Shown here: positions 1,967 to 16,451 of the stretch, piece by piece
Position numbering within the stretch: position 1 is the first letter of the stretch
Layout of the letters: each line of letters opens with the position of its first letter
Assembly (NCBI RefSeq): GCF_053078305.1
Contig: NZ_CP166879.1
Direction: 5' to 3' (one strand)
Length of the DNA stretch: 64,000 nt
Program-made: the position numbers and the translations under genes
Notes under the pieces: model-generated
Told to the model about the DNA's origin: nothing
Seen by the model: the letters and a program-made list of their open reading frames with translations, nothing else
Databases searched by the model: none

Positions 1967-3268
1967 TCAAGCAGAGGTAAATTGCGGGATGTTATGCCAT
2001 AACGGCCAGCTAAACGAGAAGCGGGCACCACCCAGTTCGCTGGTGTCACAATTAACCGTACCGCCCATTGCCAGTGCTATAGAGTGGACAATTGCCAGCC
2101 CCAGCCCGCAGCCGCCGGTTGAGCGATCCCGGCTGGGATCGAGGCGAACAAAAGGTTCAAAGATATGTTCGCGGTTTTCTGGGGCAATCCCTGGGCCATC
2201 ATCCTCAACAATTAATGTCGCTCTATTCCCCGACAGTAGCAGGCTGGTTTCAACCGTTGAATGGCAGTAGCGAAGGGCGTTATTGAGCAAATTATCCAGC
2301 ACGCGCTCCATTAAGCGCATATCCAACGCCGCATAATGGCCTTGCATGAGCGTTTTTATCCGTACCGTTTTATCGGGCGTTACTGCCTGAATATCTGCCA
2401 GATGCGTTGATAGCCACAACGGCAGGTCTGGTTCGCTAAGATGAAGCTCGTTTTGTGGGCGATCGAGTCGGGCATAAGTCAGCAGCTCTTCAATTAAAGC
2501 TTCAAGTTGACTGATATCACGATTCAACGCCTGGGATTCGGCGGCGCTCAGGTTATCGCTCATCTCCAGTCGATAACGCAGGCGCACTAACGGTGTTCGC
2601 AGTTCGTGAGCGATACCGTCAATAAGCTGTTTTTTGCTGGCAATCAAGGCGTTGATATTGTCCGCCATCTGGTTAAATGCGATACCAAGTCGTTCAAAGC
2701 TCGAACCCTCATCAAAGTGGATACGTTCATTGAGATGCCCATCGCCAAATCGTTGCGCCGCTGCTTCCAGTTTTAACATATCCTGCCAGTGCGGACGCAT
2801 CCAGATAAACACCGGAAAGGCGAGGGAAATAGCAATAAAAGCGATCAGGGCGATATCCAGCAATCGCATCTGATGGAGATAATAAAGATAAGGAACAGGA
2901 CCAACTGCCAGCACGTAGTGGCTGCGCGGGATACGCTGCAAAAACGTGTACTGATCGTCCAGGGCGACAATTTCGCCGCCACGCAGTCGGTGCATGGAAA
3001 TATCATCAAGATGGTATTTACTCAGTGGCTCGACACGCAGATCGAAAGAGAGATTTAAATCCATCTCTTTCAGCGTCTTACCCCAGTCGTGTGGGGGGAT
3101 CTCACGCAATTCGCTGCGCATCAGATACAGCGAACTGTTCATCAAATCATCCAGCGACTGTTTGCCCGCGCGTTCGGCGGTAAATTTGTACACCAGCCCA
3201 ACCAGCAGAGACATCACAAGGAAGCAGACAAACAATAACAGGTAAAACTGGATAAACAGTTTTTTCAT
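1967..3268 (-). CDS. rstB: Sensor histidine kinase RstB
   Basis: 433-aa minus-strand ORF; N-terminal TM segments, HAMP region, H-box (AHELRTPL) and HATPase C-terminus; synteny with rstA. Confidence 0.9.
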   Translation of the reverse strand: MKKLFIQFYLLLFVCFLVMSLLVGLVYKFTAERAGKQSLDDLMNSSLYLMRSELREIPPHDWGKTLKEMDLNLSFDLRVEPLSKYHLDDISMHRLRGGEIVALDDQYTFLQRIPRSHYVLAVGPVPYLYYLHQMRLLDIALIAFIAISLAFPVFIWMRPHWQDMLKLEAAAQRFGDGHLNERIHFDEGSSFERLGIAFNQMADNINALIASKKQLIDGIAHELRTPLVRLRYRLEMSDNLSAAESQALNRDISQLEALIEELLTYARLDRPQNELHLSEPDLPLWLSTHLADIQAVTPDKTVRIKTLMQGHYAALDMRLMERVLDNLLNNALRYCHSTVETSLLLSGNRATLIVEDDGPGIAPENREHIFEPFVRLDPSRDRSTGGCGLGLAIVHSIALAMGGTVNCDTSELGGARFSFSWPLWHNIPQFTSA

Positions 3269-3271
3269 CGC

Positions 3272-3991
3272 TTATTCCCATGCATGAGGCGCAAAAAGAT
3301 AGCCTTTGTTACGCACAGTTTTAATGCGATAAGGTTCTGCGGCGTTATCGAGCAGTTTTTTTCTTAACCGCGAAATAGCCACGTCCACGCTACGATCCAG
3401 TCCGTCATAACTGACGCCGCGTAAATTTTTCAGCAATGCATCGCGGTCCATGATTTGCCCGGCATGGGTAGCTAATTCCCACAATAATTCGAAATCAGCT
3501 GTCGAGAGCGAGATTTCAGTGTTAGCCAGGGTGACTACGCGGTTGATGGGATCGATGGTCAACGTGCCGAAATGCAGGGCTTTGTAGGGAGTCAGAGACG
3601 TTTCCTGAAGACCTTTGGTCAGTGTGGCTTGCTCATTCTGACGCAAATGCAAACGTAAACGCGCTAACAAAACAGCAGGGGGCGTCGTTTTGAGAATATA
3701 GTCGCAGGCACCCATTTCCAGTGCCAGGATATGGTTCATATCGCTATCGAGAGAGGTTAGAAGAACAATCGGTCCGGACCACTTTGCGCGTAAATCACGA
3801 CAAATGGTCATGCCGTCCTTGCCTGGTAGCATGATGTCGAGTAACACCAAATCCGGATTTTCTCGCAAAATGGTTTCTTCGGCCTGGTCGCCGCGCGGCT
3901 CTACGGTAACCTGCATATCATGTTTTGCCAGGTACGCGGCAATCAGTGAACCGACTTCCGCATCATCTTCCACAAATACGATAGTGTTCAT
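3272..3991 (-). CDS. rstA: Response regulator RstA (OmpR family)
   Basis: Translation MNTIVFVEDD... with receiver and winged-helix domains; track ORF trimmed by 20 codons to the ATG at 3989-3991. Confidence 0.9.
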   Translation of the reverse strand: MNTIVFVEDDAEVGSLIAAYLAKHDMQVTVEPRGDQAEETILRENPDLVLLDIMLPGKDGMTICRDLRAKWSGPIVLLTSLDSDMNHILALEMGACDYILKTTPPAVLLARLRLHLRQNEQATLTKGLQETSLTPYKALHFGTLTIDPINRVVTLANTEISLSTADFELLWELATHAGQIMDRDALLKNLRGVSYDGLDRSVDVAISRLRKKLLDNAAEPYRIKTVRNKGYLFAPHAWE

Positions 3992-4119
3992 AACATTCAC
4001 GGTAGATATAAAAACGTCACAATACACCGCGCTGTTTTTACTTACTATCAATCGTTTCTAAACAAGTTTTCATCAGGTATTCTACTGATGACTTGTTATG
4101 GAAGTGTTAAGGTAAAAAG

Positions 4120-14289: not shown

Positions 14290-14373
14290 TCAGGAAAGAT
14301 AAAAACGGGCGGCAATCAGTGCGCATAAAATAAGGATGATAAGAATGAACTCAAAGCGATAACGGCCCACCAT
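14290..14373 (-). CDS. ydgU: Small membrane protein YdgU (27 aa)
   Basis: Minus-strand translation MVGRYRFEFILIILILCALIAARFYLS; matches the position of the K-12 small protein between asr and ydgD. Confidence 0.55.
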   Translation of the reverse strand: MVGRYRFEFILIILILCALIAARFYLS

Positions 14374-14465
14374 ACTACCCTCCGCTAAAGGCGGTGCTAA
14401 ACGTTACCCGCTTAGCACCGTAATTTTCAGGCGCGAGGGGGCGCGCCAGCATTACTGTTGAAAAC

Positions 14466-14774
14466 TTACGCTGCGGGTTGTGCAGCAGGTTTTGCCGGTT
14501 GCTGATGGCTGTGTTTCTTGGCGTGTTTCTTCGCTGCCTGCGCTTTTTGTTCTGGGGCTTTCTGTTCAGCTTTCGCATTTTTATGATGCTTTTTAGCCGC
14601 CTGCGCTTTCTGGGCAGGTGCTGCTTTATGCTGTTTTTTATGATGTGTAGTTTTCGCCGGTGCTGCTTTGGTGGTCGTCGCAGTCGGAGCAGGTGTGGTC
14701 GCAGTCTCTGCAGCAAAGGCGGCAGAAGACAGACCCATAGCAGCGGCAACAACCAGAGCTAATACTTTTTTCAT
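14466..14774 (-). CDS. asr: Acid shock protein Asr
   Basis: Translation [21 protein letters not shown] followed by a low-complexity A/K/H/Q-rich repeat; track ORF trimmed by 9 codons. Confidence 0.85.
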
Positions 14775-14877
14775 TGTCATACCCTCAATTTGTTTTTTCA
14801 TTTAACCCCACTGCGGGGCCGTTGAAATAACTATATCCCTGGGAATGGCAGACTTCCGTGAGTGGTTGGTTTCAGCG

Positions 14878-14893
14878 TGTAACGATATGTACA
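14878..14893 (-). promoter_or_regulatory. RstA box upstream of asr
   Basis: Minus-strand TGTACATATCGTTACA fits the reported RstA consensus TACATNTNGTTACA, about 105 bp upstream of the asr start. Confidence 0.55.
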
Positions 14894-15197
14894 AACGCTG
14901 AATAAATTACAGCGTTGATAATAACGTATTGTGACTTAAGGAAAATTTAGCTACCAATAATAGTAGTCTTGATCGGGTTAACTATTTTACTACTTACAAA
15001 GCGGTAGAATAACTGCGCATCAGTAATAAATGACACACAGCAAAATGAATCCGTTTATTTGGGTACTTATAATCCTGATGACGCTAGACGCGCTGCGGGA
15101 ATTGGCTGGCGCTTCGTCTATTTTAGGATGGCTATTAACGTTGGTTTGAGTAGGCAATAAGTCCGGACGGGTATTTACCGCAGTCCGGACTTATTTT

Positions 15198-16451
15198 TCA
15201 GGCGTGCAGACGACGATGCAAACGCGTCCCGACCAGCAGAGCAATGACCAGCATCAGAGCAATAAATGCGCCGACGCCGTTCCAGCCATAGTTATGCCAG
15301 AAAACACCACCCAGCGTCCCGGCAATACTCGACCCCAGATAGTAACTGAACAGATACAGCGAGGAGGCCTGGCCTTTAGCGCGTTTTGCGCGGGGGCCGA
15401 TCCAGCTGCTGGCAACTGAGTGGGCTGCGAAGAATCCTGCTGAGAAGAGTAACATTCCGGCAAAGATCAGCCACAGCGAGCTGAATAAGGTCATCAGTAA
15501 ACCAAACAGCATAACCCCCGTCGAAAACAACATCACTGGACCACGCCCATAGCGGGTGGTCATGGTTCCGGCTTTGGGTGAGCTCCATGTACCGGTCAAA
15601 TAAGCCAGCGATAATAAGCCAACCACGGCCTGACTGACATGCCAGGGGGAGAGCATCAACCGATAGCCGATGTAATTAAACAGCGTGACGAACGACCCCA
15701 TCAGCAAAAAGCCTTCTGCGAACAATAACGGTAATCCCCGGTCACGCCAGTGCAGACGAAAGTTGATAAACAACGACTTAGGTCGCAGCGAAGTCGGGCG
15801 AAAATGGCGTGATTCCGGGAGGATTTTCCAGAACATCAACGCCGAGGCTAGCGCGAAACAACCGATAGCCGCCAGAGCAATTCGCCAGTTGAAAAAGTCC
15901 GTGAAGACACCGCTAATTAAGCGTCCGCTCATGCCGCCAATTGAGTTGCCGCTGATATACAACCCCATCGAAAAGGCCACGAAACTGGGGTGGATTTCCT
16001 CGCTAAGATAAGTCATGCCAACAGCTGCCACGCCACTTAACGAAAGCCCAATCAAGGCGCGCATAATCAAAATGCCGTGCCAGCTGGTCATCATTGTCGA
16101 AAGTAACGTACAAATGGAGGCCAACAGTAGCGCCGTGACCATCACTGGTTTGCGACCAATGGCATCGGATAGGGGGCCAGTAAACAGCAAACCAATAGCC
16201 AACATCGCCGTGGAAATGGACAGTGAAATACTACTGTTCGCGGGCGTTAAGCCAAACTCCTGCGAAAGCACCGGAAGGATAGGCTGCACACAATAGAGAA
16301 GTGCAAATGTTGCCAGTCCGGCAGAGAACAGCGCCAGGGTGACGCGCATAAATTGCGGCGTACCGCGTTTAATAAATTGATTTGGCTGAGAAATGCTTTG
16401 CTTGTCAGTGTCGCTTGCCGGAGCGCCATCAACAGTTGTAGTACGGCTCAC
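15198..16451 (-). CDS. ynfM: MFS transporter YnfM
   Basis: 417-aa 12-TM ORF; synteny. Confidence 0.85.
   Translation of the reverse strand: MSRTTTVDGAPASDTDKQSISQPNQFIKRGTPQFMRVTLALFSAGLATFALLYCVQPILPVLSQEFGLTPANSSISLSISTAMLAIGLLFTGPLSDAIGRKPVMVTALLLASICTLLSTMMTSWHGILIMRALIGLSLSGVAAVGMTYLSEEIHPSFVAFSMGLYISGNSIGGMSGRLISGVFTDFFNWRIALAAIGCFALASALMFWKILPESRHFRPTSLRPKSLFINFRLHWRDRGLPLLFAEGFLLMGSFVTLFNYIGYRLMLSPWHVSQAVVGLLSLAYLTGTWSSPKAGTMTTRYGRGPVMLFSTGVMLFGLLMTLFSSLWLIFAGMLLFSAGFFAAHSVASSWIGPRAKRAKGQASSLYLFSYYLGSSIAGTLGGVFWHNYGWNGVGAFIALMLVIALLVGTRLHRRLHA

Follow-up and report, generated by a model that had tools for sequence, protein, structure and literature searches.

The stretch of DNA analysed here (the window, 64,000 nucleotides) is E. 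coli chromosome and holds the whole of a known circuit: the regulator genes rstAB, the RstA box, the acid-shock gene asr and samT, the gene for a feedback peptide (Table 1). Gene coordinates were transferred to the window from the RefSeq annotation of one identical isolate, and the open reading frames were confirmed directly. An in-frame ATG upstream of asr (14775-14801, minus strand) would add 9 residues to Asr and give a 111-aa ORF. We favour the 102-aa start, on the basis of RefSeq and of a conserved Shine-Dalgarno sequence, GAGG, at +38 to +41. The small gene that follows, ydgU/samT, is co-transcribed with asr, and its product SamT is a negative feedback inhibitor of RstB (PMC13425233). 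In other genera, 101 of 120 asr loci among the matches listed had a tblastn match to a SamT-like ORF.

Table 1. Genes and promoter elements of the asr circuit in the window (promoter positions relative to the asr transcription start)
Feature	Position	Strand	Description
rstB, cognate sensor histidine kinase	1967-3268	-	433 aa; NCBIfam NF007898, 833 bits (cut-off 478)
rstA, response regulator	3272-3991	-	239 aa; NCBIfam NF007977, 485 bits (cut-off 330)
ydgU/samT	14290-14373	-	27-aa small membrane protein MVGRYRFEFILIILILCALIAARFYLS; 92 nt past the asr stop codon
asr	14466-14774	-	102-aa periplasmic acid-shock protein; NCBIfam NF033636 equivalog, 99.1 bits (cut-off 50)
5'-UTR hairpin	14805-14821	-	CGGCCCCGCAGTGGGGT; +3 to +19, invariant
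asr transcription start, inferred	14823	-	+1 (A); published numbering via PMC9026648; A invariant in 118 sequences
-10 hexamer	14830-14835	-	TATAGT; -12 to -7; T-12, A-11 and T-7 invariant
Spacer	14836-14844	-	TCCCAGGGA; 9 bp, -21 to -13; A at -17 and -13 only
Published PhoB (Pho) box	14845-14862	-	CTCACGGAAGTCTGCCAT; -39 to -22, position from PMC9026648
Near-invariant block	14854-14877	-	CGCTGAAACCAACCACTCACGGAA; -54 to -31, between RstA box and promoter core; from per-column conservation
RstA box	14878-14893	-	flagged 16 bases TGTACATATCGTTACA; 14-mer 14878-14891 at -68 to -55, centre -61.5 from asr +1
ynfM	15198-16451	-	transferred RefSeq annotation

The ORFs of rstA and rstB are full-length and intact, and 10.9 kb separate the box from the start codon of rstA, in agreement with the initial annotation, which had put rstAB about 10 kb away. 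This proximity is unnecessary for the regulation of asr because RstA acts in trans. Over its full length, the DNA-binding domain of RstA aligns with the K. pneumoniae RstA structures 2MLK and 4NHJ, and its recognition-helix stretch, DRSVDVAISRLRKKLLDNA, is identical to that of K. pneumoniae RstA in the 2MLK alignment. Upstream of rstA, a PhoP-box scan gave TGTTTAGAAACGATTGA; the PhoP-box-like direct repeat there, TGATGAAAACTTGTTTAGAAACGATTGA, is found at 4048-4075 on the minus strand, 57-84 nt 5' of the rstA start codon. This repeat fits the published cascade from PhoQP to rstAB, but the count of 2-mismatch matches in the window is at chance level.

Gene order around asr was also compared among genera. 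The E. coli rstAB genes are 10.5 kb downstream of asr. In two Serratia species, Rahnella rivi and an Enterobacterales MAG (L054, L064, L094, L113), rstA is found 3.2-3.6 kb upstream of an asr copy and on the same strand; upstream linkage could be read in the 43 of 120 listed loci that reach at least 5 kb upstream of asr. A loose linkage of rstA and asr recurs among genera, in differing arrangements.

At 14878-14893, the plus strand reads TGTAACGATATGTACA, and its reverse complement, TGTACATATCGTTACA, which agrees with the initial annotation, lies on the sense strand of asr. The inner 14-mer (14878-14891, minus strand), TACATATCGTTACA, has 0 mismatches to the RstA consensus TACATNTNGTTACA. This exact match is the sole one in the 64 kb, where 0.01 would be expected from 100 dinucleotide-preserving shuffles, and it bears out the suggestion that the sequence fits the published RstA recognition pattern. 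With up to 2 mismatches to the RstA consensus allowed, there are 3 more sites in the 64-kb window, which is the chance level. For the relaxed pattern TACA-N6-TACA, the window has 3 occurrences, where 1.1 would be expected. At the flagged site, the two TACA half-sites (14888-14891 and 14878-14881, minus strand) form a direct repeat with 6 bp between them, in a 10-bp register, and the box starts 117 nt 5' of the asr start codon (14774).

From about -118 to the asr ATG, the promoter in the window is identical to that of K-12 MG1655, and therefore the K-12 numbering transfers to the window. For the K-12 asr promoter, PMC9026648, citing the primary papers (Ogasawara 2007 and Suziedeliene 1999), gives an RstA box at -77 to -55, a PhoB box at -39 to -22, a 9-bp spacer from the PhoB box to the -10 hexamer, and a wild-type spacer with A at -17 and -13 and none at -16 to -14. 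A single assignment, with +1 being the A at 14823, satisfies all of the numbering statements in that paper. The alignment of asr upstream regions described below supports this assignment, in that T-12, A-11 and T-7 are invariant, as is the A at +1. The 14-bp box falls within the published RstA region, and its 3' end coincides with the limit of -55 given there. Thus, the comparison with mapped promoter elements places the box inside the regulatory region of asr, where the initial annotation had put it, and not outside.

No recognisable -35 hexamer is present in the asr promoter, and a scan of 14400-15250 for a consensus sigma-70 promoter gave no match. The missing -35 hexamer is as expected of an activator-dependent promoter. 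Classical class I activator sites are centred near -61.5, -71.5 and so on, on one helical face with the promoter, from where the activator contacts the alpha-CTD of RNA polymerase. Given +1 at 14823, the box centre of -61.5 is such a class I position, a resemblance that is positional only, and by analogy it suggests that RstA could activate in a class I-like manner through contact with the alpha-CTD. The Pho box consensus, in which two 7-bp repeats stand in an 11-bp register (CTGTCATAWAWCTGTCAY), has no match with 3 or fewer mismatches anywhere in the window, and the published asr Pho box itself has more than 3 mismatches to this consensus.

Two further features of the promoter region should be mentioned. 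The hairpin in the 5'-UTR has a folding energy of -9 kcal/mol and lies at the extreme 5' end of the asr mRNA. An Rfam scan of 14300-15250 at E<=1 returned no family for it, its folding energy is no better than that of shuffles (z = -0.19), and its sequence is invariant, hence there is no covariation. The hairpin may stabilise this very abundant acid-shock RNA from its 5' end. The other feature is a set of three AACGCTG/CAGCGTT copies in E. coli (14873-14917, minus strand). One pair makes a hairpin-like inverted repeat, AACGCTG-N9-CAGCGTT, directly 5' of the box, and CAGCGT...ACGCTG flanks the RstA box on both sides. A second palindromic operator built from these repeats was considered and rejected. 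The repeats are probably non-functional because conservation of their upstream arms does not extend to other genera.

This element is not new. Genomic SELEX had already led Ogasawara et al. 2007 (J Bacteriol 189:4791) to describe it as the asr RstA box, as that work is cited in PMC9026648, PMC4117788, PMC6824119 and PMC13425233, and it has been confirmed by several groups. Published work has demonstrated the binding of RstA, the requirement of the box for that binding, and activation both in vitro and in vivo. In EHEC, RstA shifted the asr promoter in EMSA, and asr was down-regulated in the rstA mutant by RNA-seq (PMC6824119). In strain LF82, RstA no longer bound the asr promoter when the RstA box was deleted or scrambled (PMC11135836). 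Purified RstA bound Pasr in a DRaCALA assay and activated asr transcription in vitro with the sigma-70 holoenzyme, and induction of Pasr at pH 5 needed rstA and Asp52, since deletion of rstA or the D52A substitution abolished it (PMC13425233). Saturation mutagenesis of the box gave only variants of 1.6-40% of wild-type strength (PMC9026648). These EMSA, in vitro transcription and mutant data tie asr to RstA via the box, which is the regulatory link drawn by the initial annotation. At csgD, OmpR and RstA have a DNA motif in common (PMC13425233); therefore, other OmpR-family regulators could also occupy the asr box.

Since the box itself is known, the new part of this analysis is the phylogenetic footprint. 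Within E. coli, the 1 kb around the site occurs in 5422 of 5426 complete genomes, with 100% identity in several isolates, and a box-centred 38-mer is at least 99% identical in 5361 of 5426. For a wider comparison, asr loci were collected with a degenerate DNA pattern for the invariant N-terminus of Asr. This gave at least 120 loci, all encoding Asr-like proteins, from 24 named Enterobacterales genera among the matches listed, including Escherichia, Salmonella, Citrobacter, Enterobacter, Klebsiella, Raoultella, Kosakonia, Serratia, Rahnella, Ewingella, Hafnia and Acerihabitans. We scored 117 regions, i.e., the 116 listed loci with at least 250 bp upstream and the window itself. Among these matches, the best RstA-consensus match lies on the sense strand, 117-122 nt before the ATG and with at most 2 mismatches, in 117 of 117 regions, a count that overstates independence because the sequences are kin by descent and were picked via the conserved Asr N-terminus. 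The best match has 0 mismatches in 20 of the listed regions, 1 in 70 and 2 in 27. Matches with up to 2 mismatches were otherwise rare: 3 of the 117 listed regions had one on the antisense strand, and 19 of 2340 shuffles (0.8%) had one at any position.

Per-column conservation was taken from a MAFFT alignment of 118 distinct sequences from among the matches listed. The columns T-68 to A-65 (TACA) and G-60 to A-55 (GTTACA) are 94-100% conserved in these sequences, so that TACA-N5-GTTACA is nearly invariant across the listed asr upstream regions. Consensus positions 5 and 7 are looser, with T-64 at 84% and T-62 at only 21%. Upstream of -72, the 118 sequences have essentially no conservation. The second half-site varies to TACT, TACC or TACG in Raoultella and Enterobacter loci among the matches listed. 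Judged from the aligned sequences, the site is conserved in position, strand and core sequence across Enterobacterales. The exact match, the mapped position and this deep conservation are what the present analysis establishes at the site.

Two asr paralogues, lying far apart or on separate contigs, are present in many genera (Rahnella, Raoultella, Cedecea, Ewingella, Hafnia and some Enterobacter). In the paralogue pairs (L008/L019, L009/L010, L038/L039, L041/L042, L046/L047, L062/L063 and others), an RstA-box-like site is found at an equal distance from the ATG in both copies.

We conclude that the flagged sequence is almost certainly the RstA operator of the E. coli asr-samT (asr-ydgU) promoter. 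In the mechanism that we propose, low Mg2+ or acid raises the transcription of rstAB via PhoQP, and acid pH then leads to phosphorylation of RstB and RstA and brings RstA to the box. An RstA dimer sits on the direct repeat TACA-N6-TACA centred at -61.5, in a head-to-tail arrangement as in the crystal structure of the K. pneumoniae RstA-DNA complex. The bound RstA activates transcription by sigma-70 RNA polymerase; the promoter's -10 hexamer is good and a -35 hexamer is absent. Activation in vivo needs a phosphorylatable Asp52. The products of the asr-samT mRNA then feed back on RstB, SamT negatively and Asr positively (PMC13425233).

The footprint also raises the question of how far the operator extends. 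The block from -54 to -31 is as conserved as the box, with many columns 95-100% identical (118 listed sequences, 24 named genera), while -30 to -13 is variable in the same sequences, as is the region upstream of -72. The block is unexplained by the 14-bp RstA consensus, and to our knowledge no described factor accounts for it. Because conservation runs 24 bp past the box, the alignment suggests that a single RstA dimer on the 14-bp box may be an incomplete element. By eye, and with a register of 10-11 bp, the block contains weak half-site-like sequences, GA(T/A)ACC at about -50 to -45 and CTCACG at about -39 to -34. At its 3' end, the block runs into the 5' half of the Pho box as positioned in PMC9026648. 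Of that Pho box, the 5' half (-39 to -31) is conserved, and the 3' half (-30 to -22, 14845-14853) is not conserved across the listed genera.

It is therefore conceivable, though we rate it clearly the less probable reading, that the box is part of a composite operator, a 41-bp block from -71 to -31 with two further degenerate half-sites. We would be equally tentative in proposing that such an operator takes up a second RstA dimer or else a second regulator of the OmpR/PhoB family, e.g., PhoB, which would reach the -35 region and contact sigma region 4. The contrast between the conserved -54 to -31 block and its variable surroundings speaks for a larger operator, as do the promoter's lack of a -35 hexamer, a published Pho box that begins at -39, and the finding that mutations in the -21 to -13 spacer can abolish acid responsiveness (PMC9026648). 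However, the published RstA region ends at -55 in the same paper, the extra half-sites are weak matches read by eye, and the Pho box, conserved in its 5' half only, differs from the Pho box consensus by more than 3 mismatches.

A related and somewhat more doubtful proposal, again drawn from the alignment, is that the acid-response element of asr would be a module of about 41 bp (-71 to -31), near-invariant in Enterobacterales, in which the downstream 24 bp, CGCTGAAACCAACCACTCACGGAA, would be an undescribed candidate binding surface, to be occupied by additional RstA protomers or by a second factor contributing part of the pH signal. The textbook Pho box, being conserved in its 5' half only, may be misassigned.

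With regard to the RstA operator itself, we consider it very unlikely that the flagged repeat is mainly a PhoB or OmpR site through which the phoBR dependence reported in 1999 would act. This reading takes its appeal from the first description of asr as phoBR-dependent (1999, as cited in PMC9026648), from the motif common to OmpR and RstA at csgD (PMC13425233), and from the binding of the whole family to direct repeats with 10-11 bp spacing. But the PhoB box published for asr is a different sequence, at -39 to -22 (PMC9026648), and the flagged site, an exact match to the RstA box, differs from the Pho box consensus by more than 3 mismatches. Moreover, deletion of the box abolishes RstA binding (PMC11135836), and deletion of rstA or D52A abolishes acid induction (PMC13425233), so the reading is already largely refuted. 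That the match is a functionless chance occurrence of an AT-rich short motif in an intergenic region is improbable in the extreme: three relaxed TACA-N6-TACA repeats against 1.1 expected and 2-mismatch matches at chance level are what it could draw on, but the chance expectation for an exact match is 0.01, 117 of 117 orthologous and paralogous promoters among the matches listed have the site in a fixed position and on a fixed strand, and conservation together with published binding and mutagenesis (PMC9026648, PMC6824119, PMC11135836, PMC13425233) has already refuted it.

As a discovery, the RstA operator carries little weight, having been in print since 2007. It serves well as a positive control for the scan, since a real and experimentally validated element was recognised here from sequence alone. 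The RstA box of asr is in routine use in synthetic pH sensors, and the -54 to -31 block is a small and cheap mutagenesis target for dissecting or engineering Pasr.

PhoB activates in a class II-like manner, with the Pho box replacing the -35 hexamer. Like RstA, PhoB belongs to the OmpR/PhoB family and binds direct repeats, and a Pho-box-like sequence is placed at -39 to -22 in the asr promoter (PMC9026648). In comparison with that Pho box, the flagged site lies 16 bp further upstream and its register is 10 bp, not 11 bp; its mismatches to the consensus number more than 3. In contrast to PhoB activation, the site is centred at -61.5 and does not overlap -35. The omrB promoter has an RstA-box-like sequence with 2 mismatches, AACCTTTGGTTACA, at -79 to -66, adjoining a conserved box; in vitro, no binding of RstA to this promoter could be detected, while the asr promoter was clearly bound (PMC13425233). 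The omrB flanks were compared by eye only with the asr -54 to -31 block, and no convincing likeness was seen.

The closest known system is the RstA box of E. coli K-12 asr, with the same sequence at the same locus and no difference at the site; the window strain is non-K-12 and has one substitution near -119. The asr box of K. pneumoniae and its complex with the kpRstA DNA-binding domain (PDB code: 4NHJ; PMC4117788) are also alike, in that two direct-repeat half-sites are bound by the two DNA-binding domains of the dimer; in that work, the two domains occupied the tandem half-sites by sequential binding. The K. pneumoniae box is an imperfect TACA/TACT repeat (PMC4117788); in the E. coli box, both half-sites are perfect TACA.
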